Source: an uncultured virus (IMG/VR IMGVR_UViG_3300023231_000362) (taxonomy: Duplodnaviria > Heunggongvirae > Uroviricota > Caudoviricetes). From it: a DNA stretch of 64,000 bases. A program made the position numbers and the translations under genes. Of the stretch, positions 8,103 to 52,306 are shown piece after piece (the stretch's first letter is position 1; the number at the start of each line of letters is the position of its first letter). The DNA lies in the IMG/VR virus record IMGVR_UViG_3300023231_000362; one strand, given 5' to 3'. Under the pieces are notes generated by a model. The model was not told where the DNA came from. It did not search any database and saw only the letters and a program-made list of their open reading frames with translations.

Positions 8103-8858
8103 ATGGCCACACTTATAGAAAAACGACAAGAAATAGAAGAGTACATTAACCTAAGACTAGGTGGTCAGATGGTTGATGTTGAGTTAGATAAGGAGCATTA
8201 TGACCTTGCTATTAATAGGTCACTAACGAGATATAGACAGCGAGCTGAAAATTCTCAGGAGGAAAGTCATGCTTTCCTAGCTCTAAACAAAGATCAAAAT
8301 GAGTACATACTACCTAGTGAAATACAAGAAGTACGTCAAGTGTTCAGACGTGGTATAGGTAGTACATCAGGCACAACAGCAAGCCAGTTTGAACCGTTCT
8401 CTAGCGGGTACCTTAACACATATATGTTAGTTGCTGGTAGAGTAGGTGGTTTATTAAACTATGAATTGTTTTCACAATATCAAGAATTAGCAATGAAAAT
8501 GTTTGGTGGATTTATTAACTTTACATTTGACAGAAGTACAAAAAAACTTACTATTGTGCGTAAGGTCCCACAGGGCGGCGAAGACGTGTTACTTTGGACA
8601 TATAACTTTAAACCAGATATAACTATACTCAATGACCATATGATTTTTCCCTGGGTACAAGATTATTCTTTAGCACTTGCAAAACACATGTTAGGTGAGG
8701 CAAGAGAAAAGTTTGCACAGATTGCTGGACCGCAAGGTGGCACCAGTTTAAACGGTGCAAGTTTAAAGAGCGAAGCACAAATGGAAATGCAAACACTAGA
8801 GCTTGAAATTCAGAACCAGATGACTGGCACTCAGCCAATGTGGTGGGTTACCGGCTAG
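8103..8858 (+). CDS. Neck protein (T4 gp13-like head-tail adaptor)
   Basis: LRLGGQMVDVELD, WVQDYSLALAK..LGEAREKF and GGTSLNG motifs. Confidence 0.8.
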   Translation: MATLIEKRQEIEEYINLRLGGQMVDVELDKEHYDLAINRSLTRYRQRAENSQEESHAFLALNKDQNEYILPSEIQEVRQVFRRGIGSTSGTTASQFEPFSSGYLNTYMLVAGRVGGLLNYELFSQYQELAMKMFGGFINFTFDRSTKKLTIVRKVPQGGEDVLLWTYNFKPDITILNDHMIFPWVQDYSLALAKHMLGEAREKFAQIAGPQGGTSLNGASLKSEAQMEMQTLELEIQNQMTGTQPMWWVTG

Positions 8859-8905
8859 CCTTTTGTATACTTTTGTACTATAATAACTAGATGCAAAAAT
8901 AAATT

Positions 8906-8974
8906 ATGCCTAAAATTGCCGACTTAGAAGTTACCCCAAATCCAAACGCTAGGAAATTTGTACTTATATTATGA
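8906..8974 (+). pseudogene. 22-codon N-terminal stub of an nfu/NifU-family gene ([22 protein letters not shown]); its stop overlaps the sufB start (ATGA)
   Basis: First 20 codons match the start of the 10493 ORF (19 of 20 aa identical). Confidence 0.85.
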
Positions 8975-10407
8975 ATACAGCAATTGATAACATTGTGAAT
9001 CAGCCGTACAAGGCTGGATTCCACACCGAAATCGAGACGGATTCAATGGCTCGTGGTTTGAGCGAAGATGTTATTCGAACGATATCGAGCAAGAAGAATG
9101 AGCCAGATTGGTTGTTAGAGTTTCGTCTTAATGCTTACCGTCATTGGTTGACGATGACAGAGCCAAAATGGCCAAACGTGAGATATCCAAAAATTGATTT
9201 TCAGGACATAATTTATTATTCGGCACCGAAGTCTAAGGCGACCAAGAAGTCCATGGATGAGGTCGATCCAGAGTTATTGAAAACTTTTGAGAAGCTTGGT
9301 ATTCCTATGAATGAGCGTGCGGCTTTGGCAGGCGTTGCTGTGGATGTTGTTTTTGATAGTGTTTCTGTAACGACCACCTATAAAGAAAAGTTAGCGGAAT
9401 ACGGGATCATATTTTGCTCGTTCTCGGAGGCGGTCAGAGACCATCCAGATCTGATTAAGAAGTACCTTGGCAGCGTTGTTCCTTATACCGATAATTTTTA
9501 TTCTGCATTAAATTCAGCGGTTTTTACGGACGGTTCGTTTTGTTACATCCCCAAAGGTGTGAAGTGTCCGATGGATCTGTCGACTTACTTTCGCATCAAT
9601 ACTCAGGACTCGGGTCAGTTTGAAAGGACTCTGATTGTCGCAGAAGAGGGCAGTCAGGTGTGTTACCTAGAGGGTTGCACCGCACCTCAATTTGACACGA
9701 ATCAATTGCATGCGGCGGTGGTTGAGCTCATTGCTCTTGATGATGCGGATATTAAGTATTCCACTGTGCAAAATTGGTATGCCGGAGATGAAAATGGCGT
9801 TGGTGGTATCTTTAATTTTGTGACTAAGCGAGGATTGTGCAAAGGTAAAAACTCCAAGATATCTTGGACCCAAGTGGAGACTGGATCAGCGGTGACTTGG
9901 AAATACCCCTCGTGTATTCTTCTTGGCGATAATTCGGTGGGTGAGTTTTACTCCGTAGCGCTTACTAATCACATGCAACAAGCGGACACTGGAACAAAGA
10001 TGTTCCATATTGGCAAGAATACCCGCAGCCGCATTATCAGTAAGGGTATTTCAGCGGGAAAATCTAATAATAGTTATCGTGGTTTGGTGAAGGTGTCACC
10101 TAAAGCCGATGGCGCTCGTAACTATTCTCAATGCGACTCTATGTTGATTGGCGATCTTTGTGGTGCCAATACATTCCCTTACATCGAGGTCGCCAACAAG
10201 AGCTCGATCGTAGAGCATGAGGCAAGCACATCAAAAATTGGTGAAGAGCAGATGTTTTATTTTTCGAGTCGAGGTATCGGTTCTGAAGAAGCTGTTTCTA
10301 TGATTATTAATGGATTCGTTAGAGATGTATTTATGCACTTGCCCATGGAGTTCGCGGTCGAGGCAACAAAATTACTCGGCTTAAAACTGGAAGGAAGTGT
10401 TGGATGA
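8971..10407 (+). CDS. sufB: Fe-S cluster assembly scaffold SufB
   Basis: [61 protein letters not shown] and LPMEFAVEA motifs; full length 478 aa. Confidence 0.97.
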
Positions 10408-10481
10408 TTATAAAGAATGCAGAAACGATCCTAAGTGTACATAACCTCGTCGCTAGTATTGATGGCACTCAAAAAACTTAA
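10404..10481 (+). pseudogene. sufC: 25-codon N-terminal remnant of sufC ([25 protein letters not shown])
   Basis: ATGA overlap with the sufB stop; resembles SufC N-termini (IL-S-V-x-N-L-x-A-x-I/V-D-G) but ends before the Walker A motif. Confidence 0.7.
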
Positions 10482-10492
10482 GTAAAAAAATT

Positions 10493-11062
10493 ATGCCTAA
10501 AATTGCCGACTTAGCAGTTACGCCGAATCCAAACGCTAGGAAATTCGTACTCAAAGAACCTATAACCTATGGTGTGGCCAAGTCATATGAGTCAGCGGAA
10601 GAAGCGGTTGGGGATGAACTTGCGTCTAGTTTGTTTCAAATAGAGAGTGTGGTATCTGTTTTTTATGTCGATAATTGGATTACGGTGACGCAAGACGGCA
10701 GTGCTGATTGGAAAGATTTGATGCGCTCTTTGGCCGAACCAATTCGTTTGGCCCCTGTTGCAACTCAGGTTTCGGAGGAAGCATCGAAAACTGCCACATG
10801 GCTTCAAACGGATGAATCCAGTCTTTCCGAAACGGAACGGGCTCAGCTTGTGCAAATCAATGAATTGCTAGATGACCGTGTGAGGCCATACCTTCAAAGT
10901 GATGGCGGTGATCTCTATGTTGTAGGCTTAGAGGATAACGTTTTAAGTGTCCATTATCAGGGCGCATGTGGTAGTTGCCCCAGTTCCTTATCTGGAACAC
11001 TCGCTGGTATTGCCAGTTTAGTAAGGGAAATCGATCCTAACATCGAAGTTGTAGCGGTATAA
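10493..11062 (+). CDS. Nfu/NifU-family Fe-S carrier (Nfu_N plus NifU C-terminal domain)
   Basis: [10 protein letters not shown]-domain; VRPYLQSDGGD and YQGACGSCPSS (CxxC). Confidence 0.93.
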   Translation: MPKIADLAVTPNPNARKFVLKEPITYGVAKSYESAEEAVGDELASSLFQIESVVSVFYVDNWITVTQDGSADWKDLMRSLAEPIRLAPVATQVSEEASKTATWLQTDESSLSETERAQLVQINELLDDRVRPYLQSDGGDLYVVGLEDNVLSVHYQGACGSCPSSLSGTLAGIASLVREIDPNIEVVAV

Positions 11063-11137
11063 GCTAGAACTGAATGACTTGAGCAACTGGCTAATTTTTC
11101 TGTTTAATTTTATTTCTACTTGTGTTATAATCTATCT

Positions 11138-11761
11138 ATGATTATAGGAATATGTGGGCTGATTGGAACCGGCAAAGACACCGTTGCAGATTACTTGGTA
11201 AATTTTCATGGTTACAGACGTGATAGTTTTGCTAACCCACTTAAAGATGCTGTTAGTACAATATTTGGTTGGGATAGAGATCTTGTGGAAGGCCGTACAA
11301 CAATGGCTCGCCAATGGCGTGAGCAAGTTGACGAATGGTGGTCGCAAAGACTAGGCATACCCAACTTAACTCCTCGTTATGTCTTACAACAGTGGGGTAC
11401 CGAAGTTGTGCGTAAGAGCTTTCACGATGATACCTGGATTGCAAGTTTAGAAAACAAAATACGTAAAAGTAAAGACGACTCTGTTATTACAGATTGTAGG
11501 TTTCCTAACGAGATAAAAATGATTAAAGGTCTGGGCGGCAAAGTTCTCCGTGTTAAACGTGGGGAAGATCCTGTATGGTACAATACCGCAATAGCCGCCA
11601 ATAACGGGGACAAACAAGCAGAGGATCAGATGCACACCCACTTTAAGGTACACATTAGCGAATGGGCGTGGGCAAGTGCAGACTTTAATTATACTGTATT
11701 AAACAACGGCAGTATAGATGAGCTATATGAAGTACTTAAAAATCTGGTAGTATCTCACTAG
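11138..11761 (+). CDS. Deoxynucleoside monophosphate kinase (T4 gp1-like)
   Basis: IIGICGLIGTGKDT P-loop, SFANPLKD, TPRYVLQQWGTE and ITDCRFPNE motifs. Confidence 0.9.
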   Translation: MIIGICGLIGTGKDTVADYLVNFHGYRRDSFANPLKDAVSTIFGWDRDLVEGRTTMARQWREQVDEWWSQRLGIPNLTPRYVLQQWGTEVVRKSFHDDTWIASLENKIRKSKDDSVITDCRFPNEIKMIKGLGGKVLRVKRGEDPVWYNTAIAANNGDKQAEDQMHTHFKVHISEWAWASADFNYTVLNNGSIDELYEVLKNLVVSH

Positions 11762-29140: not shown

Positions 29141-30074
29141 ATTCAAGCACTTTGCAAGACTTAACCCTGACGGCACAGTAAGCCGATGTGGTCACATGGT
29201 AAAACCTCCTCGTTTTAATTCATTTAATGACATGAATAACAGTGACTGGAACAATAACTTAAAAGATTGGCCTGTCGAATGTGTTAGATGCAAAGTTAGC
29301 GAAAATCAGGGCAAAGAAAGTGTTAGGCAATTCAGTAACAAACAACATGAAGAACTATCTCAAGCTCATAAAGATTATCTAATCATTGGTGGAGTGTTGG
29401 ATAATATATGTAACTCTGCATGTCAACATTGTAATCCACACTTAAGCACAAAGTTTGGCGCCATTGCTAATAATAAGATAATAGTAGACAACACAGATAA
29501 ATTTTACAACTTTCCGCAGGAACGTATTGTTAAGTTAGATATTAATGGTGGAGAGCCCACAGCAAGCCCCAACTACAAAAAATTACTGGAGTATTTGCCT
29601 GCTAACGTGCGTTATGTGAGAATAAACACAAACGGCAGTCTACGTATAGATCCAACGCCTTTGCTTAACCGTGGCATTGATGTTACAATAACTATGAGTT
29701 TAGATGGCATAGACAAAGTACATGATTACTTACGTTGGCCCGTTGTTTGGAAGACATGGTTAAAACAATTTAACTATTACAACGAATTTAAAAACAAGAA
29801 CTTCCATTTAGATGTATGGTCAACTATAAGTGCATTAAACCTTAAAGACTATCCTAACATCAAAAAGTTTACAGAAGATAAGGGTGTTAATTGGGCATGG
29901 GCATTTTTAGAATCACCAGATGTATTAAGCATTAGACACACAAACTTTTTAACTGAACCTGCTAACGAGTTATTTGATGTGGTGGGGACAGAGCAAGACA
30001 ACAGTCAGAAACTAACAGCGTGGTTAAAGTACCAGGATACTATTAGAAAAATCAATTACAAGGACTACTTATGA
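29127..30074 (+). CDS. Radical SAM protein with an N-terminal twitch/SPASM-like Cys cluster
   Basis: CNSACQHC, GGEP, NTNG and SLDG motifs. Confidence 0.88.
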   Translation: MNCIRFKHFARLNPDGTVSRCGHMVKPPRFNSFNDMNNSDWNNNLKDWPVECVRCKVSENQGKESVRQFSNKQHEELSQAHKDYLIIGGVLDNICNSACQHCNPHLSTKFGAIANNKIIVDNTDKFYNFPQERIVKLDINGGEPTASPNYKKLLEYLPANVRYVRINTNGSLRIDPTPLLNRGIDVTITMSLDGIDKVHDYLRWPVVWKTWLKQFNYYNEFKNKNFHLDVWSTISALNLKDYPNIKKFTEDKGVNWAWAFLESPDVLSIRHTNFLTEPANELFDVVGTEQDNSQKLTAWLKYQDTIRKINYKDYL

Positions 30075-30592
30075 AAATAGCAATTACGGGTGGAACTAAC
30101 GGTATAGGTAAGGCATTACTAGAACATTACATTAAAAAAGGACACACTGTGATGGATTACAGTAAACGAAATGGTTGGGATATTATACACCATGAACGTA
30201 TTGCTGAACGAGTAGCACAATGTGATTGGTTTTTTAATAATGCACAACAAGGTTATGCACAGACTGAGCTACTGTTTGGTGTATATGAGTACTGGAAGGA
30301 TAAACCAGGCAAAAAGATAATAAACATTAGCAGTATGATGGCTGGAATGACAGTTAGTTGCTTACCGGGTTACGACATGTTAAAGTATCATCATCAAAAG
30401 CGAACGCTGGAAAGCGCAGTAGAAGTGTTACGAAATAAGATGACTTGGCCACAGCTAGTTACCGTACGACCTGGTAAAGTAGACACACAGGGAGAAGGCG
30501 GTGCTGATGTAACGGCCTGGGTAAGCAAATTGGTGCGTATACTTGAAGAAGACCAAGTTGGCATGGAAATATACGACATTAGTCTAGCATAA
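30071..30592 (+). CDS. Short-chain dehydrogenase/reductase
   Basis: TGGTNGIG, NNA, NISS and YHHQK (YxxxK) motifs. Confidence 0.85.
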   Translation: MKIAITGGTNGIGKALLEHYIKKGHTVMDYSKRNGWDIIHHERIAERVAQCDWFFNNAQQGYAQTELLFGVYEYWKDKPGKKIINISSMMAGMTVSCLPGYDMLKYHHQKRTLESAVEVLRNKMTWPQLVTVRPGKVDTQGEGGADVTAWVSKLVRILEEDQVGMEIYDISLA

Positions 30593-31746
30593 TGGACCCT
30601 AAAGAATACGTAACAAACAAAGTTAGGTGCCCGATCCCCTGGACCGGCATAATGATCAACCATGACGGACAAGTTAAGAATTGTATTAGAGCATACGAGG
30701 ATATAGGTGATTTAAAGACAACTCCCATTCGTGATATTGTATTAGGTAGTAAAAATATAGAGATACAACAGGCACATCAAAACAATAACAAGCACAATAG
30801 TTGCCAGGGGTGTCATAAGCTAGAAGAACAAAAAACAGACTTTAATATCATTAGCGACCGCAAGTATTACATTAAAGAAATGCGTAATGTAGACAAAGGC
30901 ATATACGATCATAATACACATGAACTACATCAGATAGATGTACGCTGGCAAAATACCTGTAACTTTGCTTGTATATATTGTGGTCCTGAATTTAGTAGTA
31001 AGTGGGCACAAGAGGTTAATATACACTTACCAACACCCAGCAAAGAAAACTATGACGACTTGCGTAACTATGTTTTTGACAATGTTAAAAACTTAAAGAA
31101 CGTATATCTAGCTGGTGGTGAGCCCATGCTAATGACAGAGAACGAAGAACTGTTAGAGCTACTGCTTAAACACAATCCCGACGTAAATCTACGCATTAAC
31201 ACTAACCTAAGTCATACTAACACACGAGTGTTTGATTTGGTATGTAAGTTTAAAAACGTACACTGGATTGTGAGTGCAGAGACCATGGGAGATGACTATG
31301 AGTACATACGTTATGGTGGTCAATGGGCAACATTCTGTCATAACCTACGTTGGATCAAGGACTTAGACCATAAGATAACATTTAACATGTTGTACTTTGC
31401 TCTTAATGCATTTACCGTCTTTTATTTTATTGAAAAGTTTAAAAATGACTGGAACTTTCATCCAAATGCATTTGTAATTGGGCCCGTTTTACAACCTGAA
31501 GCACTTAACGTTCGGCATCTTCCTAAATTGACATTAGATAGGATTGGTGTTATACTACAAGAGAAGATTAACGAACACCCTGGATATCTATTAGAAGATA
31601 GTTATAGGAATTTATTGAGGTATATACAAGAGCCGTTTAAAAAAGATCCAAACAGCACTGTAGATTTTTTAAAGGAAATAGACGCTCGTAGAGGCACAGA
31701 CAGCGAGCAGGCATTCCCTTACATATATAAACTAATGAGGCAATAA
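30592..31746 (+). CDS. Radical SAM protein with an N-terminal twitch/SPASM-like domain
   Basis: CPIPW..C..CQGC; CNFACIYC; GGEP; NTN. Confidence 0.9.
   Translation: MDPKEYVTNKVRCPIPWTGIMINHDGQVKNCIRAYEDIGDLKTTPIRDIVLGSKNIEIQQAHQNNNKHNSCQGCHKLEEQKTDFNIISDRKYYIKEMRNVDKGIYDHNTHELHQIDVRWQNTCNFACIYCGPEFSSKWAQEVNIHLPTPSKENYDDLRNYVFDNVKNLKNVYLAGGEPMLMTENEELLELLLKHNPDVNLRINTNLSHTNTRVFDLVCKFKNVHWIVSAETMGDDYEYIRYGGQWATFCHNLRWIKDLDHKITFNMLYFALNAFTVFYFIEKFKNDWNFHPNAFVIGPVLQPEALNVRHLPKLTLDRIGVILQEKINEHPGYLLEDSYRNLLRYIQEPFKKDPNSTVDFLKEIDARRGTDSEQAFPYIYKLMRQ
31528..31556 (+). promoter_or_regulatory. Internal sigma70-type promoter, probably driving uvsX
   Basis: TTGACA-17 bp-TATACT inside the radical SAM CDS. 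Confidence 0.55.
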
Positions 31747-31747
31747 C

Positions 31748-32845
31748 ATGGCACAAAAACCCTTTGATGTATCAAAATTTAGAAAAGGCTTAACCAAAAG
31801 TATTGAAGGTATCAGTTTTGGATTTAATGATCCAACAGATTGGATCAGCACAGGCAACTATGCACTAAACTATCTTATCAGTGGCGACTTTAACAAAGGT
31901 GTGCCACTAGGTAAAGTTACAGTGTTTGCCGGGGAGTCTGGCGCAGGTAAAAGTTATATTTGCGCAGGTAATATTGTAAAAGAAGCACAAGCACAGGGTA
32001 TCTTTGTTATCTTAATCGACACTGAAAACGCACTTGATGAGAATTGGTTAAAAGCACTTGACGTTGACACCAGCGCCGACAAACTGCTAAAACTTAACAT
32101 GGCCATGGTTGATGATGTTGCTAAAACAGTAAGTGACTTTATGATAGAGTATAAAACACTACCGTCAGATGACAGGCCTAAAGTATTGTTTGTTATTGAC
32201 AGTTTGGGTATGTTGTTAACACCTACAGATGTTGACCAGTTTAACAAAGGTGATATGAAGGGTGACATGGGTCGTAAGCCCAAGGCACTAACATCACTAG
32301 TACGTAACTGTGTAAACATGTTTGGTAACGCTAACGTAGGGCTTGTAGCAACCAACCATACATATGCAAGTCAGGACATGTTTGACCCTGATGACAAAAT
32401 ATCAGGTGGACAAGGCTTTATCTATGCAAGCAGTATTGTTGTTGCAATGAAGAAGATGAAACTTAAAGAAGACGAAGACGGTAACAAGATATCAGAAGTA
32501 AAAGGTATTAGAGCAGGCTGTAAGATAATGAAGACTCGTTACGCAAAACCATTTGAAGGCATACAAGTTAAAATACCGTATGAAACCGGTATGAATCCAT
32601 ATAGTGGACTGGTGGACCTGTGTGAGAAAAAGAGTTTATTGGTGAGAGAAGGCAACAGCCTTAAATACACAACTTCAGCAGGTGATGAAATCAAACAGTT
32701 CCGCAAGGCTTGGGAACGCAATGAAGGCGGATGTTTAGATACAATCATGAATGATTGGGACACTAAGGCCCTGGCCCTCACGCACAAAACAACTGATAAC
32801 GATCCGGAAGTAGCAGATGCAAATTCTATTGCAGAAGAAGTATAG
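31748..32845 (+). CDS. uvsX: RecA-like recombinase (UvsX)
   Basis: GESGAGKS, DTENA, VIDSLG, NHTY and SGGQG motifs. Confidence 0.92.
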   Translation: MAQKPFDVSKFRKGLTKSIEGISFGFNDPTDWISTGNYALNYLISGDFNKGVPLGKVTVFAGESGAGKSYICAGNIVKEAQAQGIFVILIDTENALDENWLKALDVDTSADKLLKLNMAMVDDVAKTVSDFMIEYKTLPSDDRPKVLFVIDSLGMLLTPTDVDQFNKGDMKGDMGRKPKALTSLVRNCVNMFGNANVGLVATNHTYASQDMFDPDDKISGGQGFIYASSIVVAMKKMKLKEDEDGNKISEVKGIRAGCKIMKTRYAKPFEGIQVKIPYETGMNPYSGLVDLCEKKSLLVREGNSLKYTTSAGDEIKQFRKAWERNEGGCLDTIMNDWDTKALALTHKTTDNDPEVADANSIAEEV

Positions 32846-34193
32846 TGAGCTACTAACCCAACCTGTTAATCAAATATACAGAGAACTTAAATCTGTTTAC
32901 AAGCATGCGTTTGCAGACAACGAACGCATTCTTTTTATTGATGATGTAGAGGGTACAGATGCTAAGTCTAATTTAGAGTTTTATTTAGATAAACTTCTAG
33001 ATCACCTAGACATTGACAGGTTCTTTATACAAACGGTTAACAGAGGTAGCCAAACTATAGCTAACCCTACTAACTATCACATACCGGACTCAGTGTGCAT
33101 AACACCCTGGTTAAGTCTGGAAGTGGATGTTGATAGTAAACTGCACCGTTGTTGCTTGTGGGACAGAGAAAAAGGCACTACTTCAGACAGTCTTGTGGAA
33201 TATTTTAAAAGCACAGAACAGGTCCAGTTGAAGCAGGACTTCTTACAGGGTAAACGCCCTGACGCATGCAATAAGTGTTGGCAACTAGAATCAGCAGGTG
33301 GTACAAGTAAACGGTTAGCAGACAACTATGTGTTTAGGGATCACAAATTTGATATAGACTACAACGACACAACATCTAGTCGGATAGTTAACTTAGACAT
33401 TAAGTTAGGTAACAAGTGTAATCTGGCATGCAGGATATGTGGCCCAAGATGCAGTAGTACTTGGTCACGGTTTGCTGATGCCGTTACTGTGGAGTTTAAT
33501 TGGTTAGAAAACGAGTCCAGTGCGTTTTGGTCAGACATAATAGATATCAGTGAAGACGTTAAGTACATTACCTTTGCAGGTGGTGAACCGCTACTAGACA
33601 AGACACATAGAAAACTGTTACAATACTTTATTGACACAGGGTTAAGCGAAGACATTGCACTTCATTACAACACTAACGGTACAGTATTTGCAGATTTTCT
33701 CTTTGATTATTGGGACCAGTTTAAGTCTGTTGAGTTAAGTTTTAGTATAGACGCAGTCGGTAAAAGATTTGAGTATGAACGTTTTGGTATGATCTGGGAT
33801 AAGGTACATGCTAATTTACAGCGTTACAGTAAAACGGATTATACATGTAACCTTTACGCTACACTAACAGCTCTTAATGTTATGTACAGTGATGAGATAT
33901 ACGAATACTCTGAACAGTTAGGTTGTGGTATTACCTATAATTTATTAACAGATCCAGAGGATCTTGCAGTAACAAACTTGCCCGTTAAGACAAAGTTACA
34001 TATTAAAAATAAATTACTAGCGTTAGACATAAATGGATTTAAAGAAAAAATAATACCTGTAATTAGTATGATGGAAACAAAAAGTAGTATAAGTAGTTTA
34101 CAAGAATTTTTGTTGCCTCAAGACTTTAAACGAGCTCAGCGTTTTGAGGACTATTACCCTGAGCTACACTCGGAGATAACTAAATGTCAATAG
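32817..34193 (+). CDS. Radical SAM protein with twitch/SPASM-like domain and N-terminal extension
   Basis: CITPW..CC..CNKC; CNLACRIC; GGEP; NTNGT; SID. Confidence 0.9.
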   Translation: MQILLQKKYSELLTQPVNQIYRELKSVYKHAFADNERILFIDDVEGTDAKSNLEFYLDKLLDHLDIDRFFIQTVNRGSQTIANPTNYHIPDSVCITPWLSLEVDVDSKLHRCCLWDREKGTTSDSLVEYFKSTEQVQLKQDFLQGKRPDACNKCWQLESAGGTSKRLADNYVFRDHKFDIDYNDTTSSRIVNLDIKLGNKCNLACRICGPRCSSTWSRFADAVTVEFNWLENESSAFWSDIIDISEDVKYITFAGGEPLLDKTHRKLLQYFIDTGLSEDIALHYNTNGTVFADFLFDYWDQFKSVELSFSIDAVGKRFEYERFGMIWDKVHANLQRYSKTDYTCNLYATLTALNVMYSDEIYEYSEQLGCGITYNLLTDPEDLAVTNLPVKTKLHIKNKLLALDINGFKEKIIPVISMMETKSSISSLQEFLLPQDFKRAQRFEDYYPELHSEITKCQ

Positions 34194-51017: not shown

Positions 51018-52306
51018 AATACAAAGCACGGGTATTGGACACAAAGTCCCAGTCTTTCTGTGGTGCAAAGTGGTACGAGGCTGTGATATTTTTAGGGTCT
51101 GGCAAGACAATGAGTTGCCATCATAATCCTTATCACGAAGTAAGTGACACAGCAGTACTTGAAAACTACAAGGCAATACACAATACTTCTGAGAAGAAAC
51201 AACAACGAGCAGAGATGTTACGTGGCGAACGTCCAGAAGGCTGTAATTACTGCTGGCGTCTTGAGGATAATAACTCCGTTAGTGATCGGGTATATAAAAG
51301 TCAGAAGTTTACTGATGCTGACAATCAGTTAGCATTTGACTCAGACCCCAATGCTGACGTTGACTTACAGTCACTGGAGTTGCACTTTGACAAAGTATGT
51401 CAGATGGCATGTAGTTACTGCCATGCAGGTTACAGTACTACCTGGGCACAGGATATAAAGCAAAATGGTGCATACGAAAATGTAGAGTCTGACAAACAGC
51501 AACACTACAAGTATCAGAGAAAAATAGATCAACTGTTTAAGCCTACCCAGGAAAACTTATATGTAGAAGCATTTTATAAATGGTGGGACGCAGACTTACA
51601 TCGGACACTTAAAGAGTTACGCATACTAGGTGGGGAACCCTTATTGAGTCCACACATATGGCGTTTTATTGAATGGTTTAAAAGCAAAGACACTAAATGT
51701 AGTCTGGAGTTTGTAACTAACCTAGGACCCAAAGTTGATGTGCCCAGGTTCCTTAATGCTGTAGACGGCAAACAGGTTGTGGTAATGACCAGTATGGAAA
51801 CTGTGGGAGAACATGCTGAGTACACCAGAGACGGGGTAGATTACGAGCTTTGGTGTAAAAATGTCGAACTCTGTCTGCAGAGCAAAACGGTGTCACGTAT
51901 GTCAGTGCTGTTTACCGTAAATGCCTTAAGTGTGTTTAATATGTGCGATCTTATGGCAAAGATTATACACTGGAGGTCAGTGTACGGCAAAGACAGGATA
52001 AACATGAGTATTAATATCTTACGTTATCCAGTATTTCAAAACATAACAGTTTTATCTGACACTGCAAGACAACAAGTAGCCACTACTCTGGAACAATGGT
52101 TAGAACTACACGACAACTATATTACTGACTACGAGTATCAACAACTTGAGAGACTCGTAAATTATGTTAGAGTTGTTGACGCACCCGACAATTTACAAGA
52201 TGTACGCAAAGACTTTAAATCGTTCTTTACACAATATGATAAACGCAGAGGAAAAAGTTTTAAGGAAACCTTTCCTGAATTAACAGACTGGTACGGAGAG
52301 ATATAA
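51002..52306 (+). CDS. Radical SAM protein with an N-terminal twitch/SPASM-like domain
   Basis: FCGAKW..SCHH..GCNYCW; CQMACSYC; GGEP. Confidence 0.9.
   Translation: MSDVLKYKARVLDTKSQSFCGAKWYEAVIFLGSGKTMSCHHNPYHEVSDTAVLENYKAIHNTSEKKQQRAEMLRGERPEGCNYCWRLEDNNSVSDRVYKSQKFTDADNQLAFDSDPNADVDLQSLELHFDKVCQMACSYCHAGYSTTWAQDIKQNGAYENVESDKQQHYKYQRKIDQLFKPTQENLYVEAFYKWWDADLHRTLKELRILGGEPLLSPHIWRFIEWFKSKDTKCSLEFVTNLGPKVDVPRFLNAVDGKQVVVMTSMETVGEHAEYTRDGVDYELWCKNVELCLQSKTVSRMSVLFTVNALSVFNMCDLMAKIIHWRSVYGKDRINMSINILRYPVFQNITVLSDTARQQVATTLEQWLELHDNYITDYEYQQLERLVNYVRVVDAPDNLQDVRKDFKSFFTQYDKRRGKSFKETFPELTDWYGEI

Follow-up and report, generated by a model that had tools for sequence, protein, structure and literature searches.

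We have demonstrated, by alignment to host contigs, that a cassette of iron-sulfur (Fe-S) assembly genes at positions 8906-11062 of a 64,000-nucleotide (nt) stretch of DNA from an uncultured virus (Caudoviricetes; IMG/VR record IMGVR_UViG_3300023231_000362) is host DNA acquired by a recent capture. This whole stretch, hereafter the window, corresponds to positions 166947-230946 of a linear record of 289,070 bp, judged 80% complete by CheckV; about one-fifth of the phage genome may be missing from it. All four pieces named in a first-pass annotation of the window (an nfu stub, an intact sufB, a sufC-like stub and an intact nfu) were located within the cassette. The interpretation that we favour, with somewhat more than even confidence, is that the phage captured and trimmed a host suf operon, and that the retained genes act as an extra Fe-S supply for the phage radical S-adenosylmethionine (SAM) enzymes. 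The alignments establish the origin, while the proposed function is plausible.

Host origin of the sufB-nfu cassette

The closest SufB proteins in a large protein collection were 94-100% identical to the phage protein, and those with names were Burkholderiales proteins or proteins of Betaproteobacteria metagenome-assembled genomes. At the nucleotide level, the window matched a Burkholderiales-type metagenome contig, L092 (61,489 bp, GC content 0.447), in two blocks, namely 8970-10473 (96.9% identity, 47 mismatches in 1504 nt) and 10464-11064 (95.0% identity, 30 mismatches in 601 nt), which are separated by 3.8 kb within L092. According to Pfam, the operon of this contig encodes Rrf2, a class-V aminotransferase, SufA (an A-type carrier), SufB, SufC, SufD, SufS, a NifU_N protein (161 amino acids (aa), SufU-type), Nfu and a Rieske protein, and the same order was found in two GTDB species genomes (L012 and L013) at about 80% nucleotide identity. 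A host-type SufB (P0007) was present on 49 contigs, the longest of 573,800 bp. The capture of a host suf operon, proposed in the first-pass annotation, is supported by a 95-97% nucleotide match, by the host order from sufB to nfu, and by a deletion junction that is readable base by base. One detail differs from that annotation: in the host, a NifU_N (SufU-type) gene, and not sufE, occupies the position between sufS and nfu.

The base composition of the cassette is also that of the host. GC content is 0.44-0.45 at 9-11 kb of the window versus about 0.39 elsewhere, and the GC content at third codon positions (GC3) of sufB is 0.449 in both the phage and L092. The unusual frequency of NCG codons (GCG, TCG, ACG and CCG) reported from the first inspection was reproduced: their fraction is 0.069 in sufB and 0.063 in nfu, compared with a median of 0.014 and a 95th percentile of 0.033 for the 256 open reading frames (ORFs) of the record, and both genes rank within the highest three in this respect. 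These host-derived genes have phage genes on both sides, which is the genomic context expected of phage auxiliary metabolic genes. The features of the cassette and its flanks are as follows.

8103-8858, plus strand: head-tail adaptor (neck) gene, left flank (phrog_211, head-tail adaptor Ad2, E = 2.9e-31)
8879-8884, plus strand: TATAAT box of the old deoxynucleoside monophosphate (dNMP) kinase promoter, now 5' of the cassette (TATAAT-AACTAG-ATG kept in nine close empty-site relatives)
8891-8907, plus strand: remnant of the dNMP kinase 5' end, left capture junction (ATG CAA AAA TAA ATT AT)
8906-8974, plus strand: nfu stub ORF, 22 aa (nfu codons 1-20 and two junction codons), whose TGA overlaps the sufB ATG (ATGA)
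8971-10407, plus strand: sufB, intact, 478 aa (PRK11814, 894.7 bits, cut-off 717)
10404-10481, plus strand: fusion stub, 25 aa (sufC codons 1-23, then two codons and the stop from the 3' end of the host sufU-type gene, by alignment to the host)
10493-11062, plus strand: nfu, intact, 189 aa, with Nfu_N and NifU domains (Pfam, 70.3 and 66.3 bits, cut-off 27 each)
11065-11137, plus strand: 73-nt stretch carrying TGTTATAAT at 11123-11131, a promoter-like new start for the dNMP kinase
11138-11761, plus strand: dNMP kinase, right flank, restarted at ATG ATT ATA GG (phrog_139, E = 1.6e-50; Pfam DNMK)

The phage SufB scored above the cut-offs of both SufB equivalog models, NF008773 (PRK11814, scores as listed) and TIGR01980 (647.8 versus 346.4 bits), and below the cut-off for SufD models; it also matched the Pfam families SUFBD_core and SufBD_N. 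It can be aligned with Escherichia coli SufB (PDB 5AWF) over residues 13-478 (E = 4.2e-204). Residues C254, C405 and E434, described as essential in the E. coli protein, with E434 required for cluster formation (PMC5571166), correspond to C236, C388 and E417 of the phage protein; these are all kept, as is H433 (H416), and the E. coli motif E432-H433-E434 is conserved as E415-H416-E417. The phage Nfu contains the CxxC motif in the form C-G-S-C and did not reach the NfuA equivalog TIGR03341 (14.8 versus 269.35 bits); these profiles place it with the Nfu1-like proteins and not with NfuA. Proteins of the Nfu type are carriers of [4Fe-4S] clusters.

Neither stub had any match to a hidden Markov model (HMM), and no ABC ATPase domain was present in the sufC stub, which is why the identities of both were settled by DNA alignment to the host contigs. 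The first 70 nt of the sufC stub differ from the start of L092 sufC by three mismatches, and 22 of the 23 encoded residues are alike, so its relationship to SufC stands. The description of this stub as 25 SufC-like codons needs to be modified, as only 23 codons derive from sufC, and the last two, with the stop codon, come from the host sufU-type gene. The genes are closely packed: ATGA stop/start overlaps join the nfu stub to sufB and sufB to the sufC stub, and nfu starts 11 nt beyond the sufC/sufU fusion stub.

Junctions, deletion and insertion site

The left junction can be defined by comparison with relatives lacking the cassette. The kinase start in nine close relatives reads TATAAT AACTAG ATG CAA AAA CAA ATT ATA GGT; the window retains it through ATT AT (position 8907) and continues with nfu sequence thereafter, and a C-to-T change in the remnant has produced a TAA stop after three codons. 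The host spacer 5' of nfu is itself similar to the kinase start (10 of 11 nt alike, AAA[C/A]AAATTAT). Since the remnant continues to 8907 and the two sequences are so alike, what appears to be duplicated nfu upstream sequence is partly the 5' end of the kinase. The 5' end of nfu forms a 68-nt direct repeat (8897-8964 and 10484-10551) whose copies are 93% identical, with differences at 5 of the 68 nt. When 8897-8964 was compared with the host by blastn, three mismatches were found in 68 nt, one of which (at 8900) lies in the kinase remnant; the nfu-derived part of the stub differs from the host nfu 5' end at two positions (GAC, TTT). The location of the cassette between the neck gene and the dNMP kinase, given in the first-pass annotation, is supported by the PHROGs assignments of both flanks, but its left boundary is not intergenic, as it lies 17 nt inside the old kinase frame. 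At the join between the stub and sufB, the sequence passes from about position +62 of nfu to about 11 nt before sufB, with a short similarity (CT/CTTA) to the host sufA-sufB spacer.

The internal deletion is equally well delimited. The sequence follows host sufC up to 10473 and host sufU from 10464 onwards; the stretch common to both comprises the G-T-Q codons, in which 7 of 9 nt are alike, in frame. The phage copy lacks everything from sufC codon 24 through the penultimate codons of sufU. As the join is in frame, the stub ends on the sufU stop codon and retains the native 11-nt spacer to nfu. At the right edge, host homology ends at 11064, 2 nt past the nfu stop, and kinase homology with the relatives resumes at 11137-11141. 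No second copy of the intervening 73 nt (11065-11137) was found in the record, and there was no match to it in the related loci or the host contig. The segment 11120-11157, which contains the new promoter and start of the kinase, comprises the sole 38 nt shared with an 8.6-kb contig, observed in the metagenome runs X10 and X11, that is 6-12 times deeper and diverges upstream; this contig may represent a related, more abundant phage.

The TATAAT box at 8879-8884 was omitted by a sigma-70 scan because it lacks a -35 box. Its reading as a promoter is based on its conservation in relatives and on the recurrence of the same layout in the record, where TATAAT-N5-8-ATG, often with TTGACA 17 nt upstream, precedes 15 ORFs of at least 60 codons. 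Examples of this arrangement are found at G000:C1:22389, 54768, 57259, 60731 and 236316, and at 11126-11140 of the window. The position of TATAAT 5-8 nt before ATG suggests, at the sequence level, that many messages of this phage are leaderless.

The empty site is common among related viruses. Protein searches with the neck and kinase genes yielded 155 viral loci, some pairs of which come from one contig. Both genes were present in 149 loci, 147 of which had neither sufB nor nfu, and the two cassette-bearing loci both derive from one contig identical to the window. The gap between the neck and kinase genes measures 48 nt in 15 loci (84-92% neck identity) versus 2283 nt in the window, and no intermediate of cassette assembly was detected among the 149 loci. 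The local gene order of the phage is tail sheath stabiliser, virion protein, unknown gene, head-tail adaptor Ad2, cassette, dNMP kinase, small reverse ORF, tail sheath and tail tube. In several distant relatives (L185, L187, L194, L199, L221, L246, L251 and L309), varied small ORFs (100-270 aa) were found between the neck and kinase genes, one with a NUMOD3 nuclease-associated motif and another encoding a DUF6071 protein. The neck-kinase site resembles a hot spot for insertions.

Homology-facilitated or microhomology-mediated illegitimate recombination is a known process, and the short similarities observed at the junctions (10 of 11 nt, 7 of 9 nt, and 2-4 nt) resemble it. The alignments show that this jumbo phage took up suf operon DNA of a Burkholderiales-type host, which entered the first codons of the dNMP kinase gene by a microhomology-mediated event of this kind. 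A second such event then removed sufC (from codon 24 on), sufD, sufS and nearly all of the sufU-type gene.

Proposed function and alternative explanations

The absence of sufD, sufS and sufE, first noted for the window, holds for the whole record at its estimated 80% completeness, and profile searches likewise revealed no complete suf operon elsewhere in it. The record contains a single SufBD match and no ABC_tran match over the cut-off, so no partner SufC or SufD was found, and neither SufE, NifU_N nor iscU was detected. A weak Aminotran_5 match at G000:C1:85317-85940 was rejected as a SufS candidate, as it represents a DegT sugar aminotransferase. It belongs to a sugar-nucleotide modification cluster (G000:C1:84300-87270, L006), which also encodes an epimerase/dehydratase and a GFO/IDH/MocA oxidoreductase.

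The count of four radical SAM enzymes in the window was reproduced (four matches, three over the cut-off), and the whole record contains 16 matches, 12 of them over the cut-off. They are located, among other places, at G000:C1:95763-104271 and 66943-75487 and at 29403-33842 and 51395-51922 of the window, and include six on the minus strand within 9 kb. Two genes for A-type Fe-S carriers (PF01521) lie outside the window, at G000:C1:2584-2883 and 247370-247660. Five large relatives (records of 208-374 kb) were compared, and these gave 10, 1, 12, 8 and 11 radical SAM matches. Three of the four large relatives searched for A-type carriers (L327-L330) have two each, and the carrier pair is, judging from this distribution, an old trait of the phage group. 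The carriers together with the numerous radical SAM enzymes thus characterise the group, and SufB and Nfu have been added recently in one lineage.

According to the interpretation that we favour, the unit left under the old kinase promoter would consist of a 3-codon mini-ORF, a 22-codon nfu leader, sufB, the sufC/sufU fusion and nfu, and would be read as one message, translationally coupled via the short ORFs and overlaps. The phage SufB would occupy the SufB seat of the host SufBC2D complex, or form SufB2C2 with host SufC, and [4Fe-4S] clusters would reach the many radical SAM enzymes of the phage through its Nfu and its two A-type carriers; sulfur (SufS/SufU) and ATPase activity (SufC) would be supplied by the host. 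In other systems SufB is described as acting in SufB2C2 as well as in SufBC2D (PMC12584684). The E. coli SufB (PMC5571166, PDB 5AWF) acts with SufC and SufD encoded beside it, whereas here the partners must be those of the host.

A function is favoured by the intact state of both ORFs, low dN/dS (the ratio of non-synonymous to synonymous divergence), the conserved key residues, the conserved ATGA overlaps, a deletion that runs in frame onto a natural stop codon, and the 16 radical SAM matches and two A-type carrier genes of the record. Relative to L092, dS, dN and dN/dS were 0.124, 0.0076 and 0.061 for sufB, and 0.20, 0.0115 and 0.057 for nfu, values which also take in substitutions on the host lineage and perhaps some that arose in the donor prior to capture. 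As for the order of events, nfu may have been acquired first and sufB later, or both in one complex event; dS is higher for nfu, on few sites, and divergence along sufB is uneven. When L012 and L013 were used as outgroups for branch assignment, the phage branch of sufB received 5 non-synonymous and at least 10 synonymous changes (1 and 14 further changes, respectively, were unplaced), and that of nfu 4 and at least 6; the division of the silent changes between branches is rough because synonymous sites are saturated relative to the outgroups. The neutral expectation calculated from site counts is about 3.4-3.6 non-synonymous changes per synonymous change.

Besides the inclusion of host-branch change and the rough branch division, several other observations weigh against a function in Fe-S supply. 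The cassette is confined to a single phage lineage, and neither GC3 nor NCG usage has shifted towards phage values. The capture being recent, the intact frames could reflect too little time for decay. SufBD and NifU domains were found in none of the five large relatives, despite the presence of 8-12 radical SAM matches in four of them. Without SufC and SufD of its own, the phage SufB has neither an ATPase nor the SufD half of the cluster site, and an excess of one scaffold subunit may do nothing. As to transcripts, six RNA runs contained 22-30% of the sampled words, and the contigs of two of these (X15 and X16), when aligned, covered only 8970-10473 and 10495-10903, at 95-99% identity. They were rejected as phage transcripts and assigned to the host, because host sequence continues at both of their ends (at 8970, and with sufC past 10473), and no expression of the phage copy was thus detected in the matching contigs of these runs, all of which were of host type.

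Alternatively, the cassette may be a neutral passenger decaying after a recent illegitimate recombination, with the stubs and the 3.8-kb deletion as the first steps of loss, and with sufB and nfu intact only owing to the short time elapsed. This explanation, which we regard as unlikely, is consistent with the occurrence of the cassette in one lineage among the 149 related loci, the unchanged host-like codon usage, the lack of a phage transcript among the RNA contigs examined, and the scarring at three places (both stubs and the shifted start of the kinase); the clustering of SufB changes described below could also reflect a local relaxation of constraint. Against it stands an in-frame deletion that removed precisely the genes separating sufB from nfu and spared both ATGA overlaps as well as the nfu spacer. 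The ratios of non-synonymous to synonymous changes on the phage branch lie below the neutral value, the 5 differences between the two 68-nt copies of the nfu 5' end suggest that the cassette has spent real time in the phage, and the group to which this phage belongs devotes genes to Fe-S carriers and radical SAM enzymes.

Compared with P0007, the nearest host-type SufB, the phage protein has changed at 7 of 478 residues (2, 256, 412, 413, 428, 432 and 437), with S412, I413, M428, S432 and G437 being phage-specific. Five of the six phage-branch changes in SufB fall within 26 residues (P about 2.4e-4), and this cluster begins two residues before E415-H416-E417. Protein variants from other contigs (P0002 and P0003) share the phage-specific residues, from which it follows that the phage sufB persists in a varying population. 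Such clustering, together with the retention of only a scaffold and a carrier, would suit a take-over in which the phage SufB competes for host SufC, SufD and sulfur donors, and the changes at 412-437 bias the hand-off towards phage carriers, so that Fe-S supply is diverted from host enzymes to phage enzymes. We consider this very unlikely, as residues 412 and 413 of the host sequence differ from those of E. coli as well, and S432 and the S412/I413 pair occur in other database alleles (P0004, P0005 and P0017), and because of these alleles part of the cluster can be explained by allele recombination. A less improbable, though still rather doubtful, proposal is a hybrid scaffold, in which phage SufB, with its clustered changes, would be seated in host SufC2D and would hand clusters preferentially to the phage Nfu and A-type carriers, forming a private Fe-S line for the 16 radical SAM enzymes; keeping the SufB seat alone would then be a deliberate strategy of the phage. 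Within sufB, 342 nt (8976-9317) match L092 without a difference, against a divergence of about 4% over the remainder of the block (P about 1.6e-4). This pattern points to exchange by recombination, either of the phage allele with host alleles or of host alleles with one another; under the hybrid-scaffold proposal, the identity would mean that the host gene still renews the phage copy through recombination while infection proceeds.

The possibility that host reads were misjoined into a phage contig is negligible. The insert does have a host-like composition, the sample also contains the host allele (a 117-nt contig of X10 with 5 differences), and one IMG/VR contig (L172) ends 72 nt past the neck gene. 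The insert is, however, flanked by phage sequence on both sides, is rearranged, and has diverged by 3-5% from the nearest host contig. The junctions are real, as they are bridged with 0 differences by contigs from two DNA runs that are not marked as possible sources of the record and were aligned to the window: a single contig of X11 spans 8700-10890, and contigs of X10 span 8700-9781 and 10437-11149. Another IMG/VR contig shows 100% identity across 13,434 bp, the exact phage SufB protein occurs on 12 contigs, and at least half of the sampled words were recovered from each of 14 salt lake metagenome DNA runs.

Related systems and significance

Host-like SufB has been described in large phages (155-338 kb), the group C amoC-phages, where it was considered an auxiliary metabolic gene, with a warning that it is not easily told apart from host reads (10.64898/2026.06.18.733297). 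Like the phage studied here, those phages have betaproteobacterial hosts, and their SufB groups with the homologue of the predicted host; unlike it, they are described from freshwater lakes, with ammonia-oxidiser hosts, and neither nfu, nor a sufC stub, nor capture junctions are mentioned in the available part of that work (10.64898/2026.06.18.733297). The combination of an A-type carrier gene with 12 radical SAM genes has been reported for a T4-like viral genome of 183 kb, and it was proposed that phages improve Fe-S use (PMC5332604). The present record, with its two carriers and 16 radical SAM matches, resembles that genome, but the viral genomes in the available part of that report encode carriers or IscU, not a SUF scaffold subunit as observed here, and no remnant of a host operon is mentioned there. 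Viral sufE and nifU found in marine viromes were interpreted as the virus supplying a limiting step (PMC8940887). As in the window, a single suf component is present there without its partners; those data, in the part of the source available, are at the read level without genome context and concern sufE/nifU, whereas here sufB and nfu are involved (PMC8940887).

Several other SufB matches came from records labelled as viral. The SufB of Microcystis phage MaAM05 (72.7% identity, the only match above 70% in the phage database) was not used as a precedent, as it belongs to a full sufBCDS-iscU block at the end of a linear record. In this terminal region (L001, MW495066.1 261792-273876), panB and panC lie beside the block, and it looks bacterial. 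SufB matches assigned to "phages" of Staphylococcus, Listeria and Enterococcus were 41-44% identical and came from record ends or short unannotated records. Three IMG/VR contigs (L008, L009 and L010; 34.6, 24.5 and 109.8 kb) contain a full sufB-sufC-sufD-sufS-sufT block with SufB proteins 58-59% identical to that of the phage; ClpS, Hsp20, an HNH endonuclease and unknown ORFs lie ahead of this block, which may be either phage-borne or host flank. In the literature searched, which lay outside subscription journals, no account of such a trimmed sufB-nfu cassette and its junctions came to light.

Fe-S assembly genes are already known from phages, as is an apparently solitary SufB of host type, and the cassette does not open a new category. 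It does provide a legible record of the acquisition and trimming of a host operon by a phage, with junctions that can be read against a host allele of 95-97% identity and with the empty site preserved in relatives. It also ties this phage to a Burkholderiales-type host lineage (44.7% GC) in the same salt lake metagenome runs. Finally, it offers a concrete test case for the question of whether a single SUF subunit, together with a carrier, would be enough to raise the Fe-S supply in a phage rich in radical SAM enzymes.

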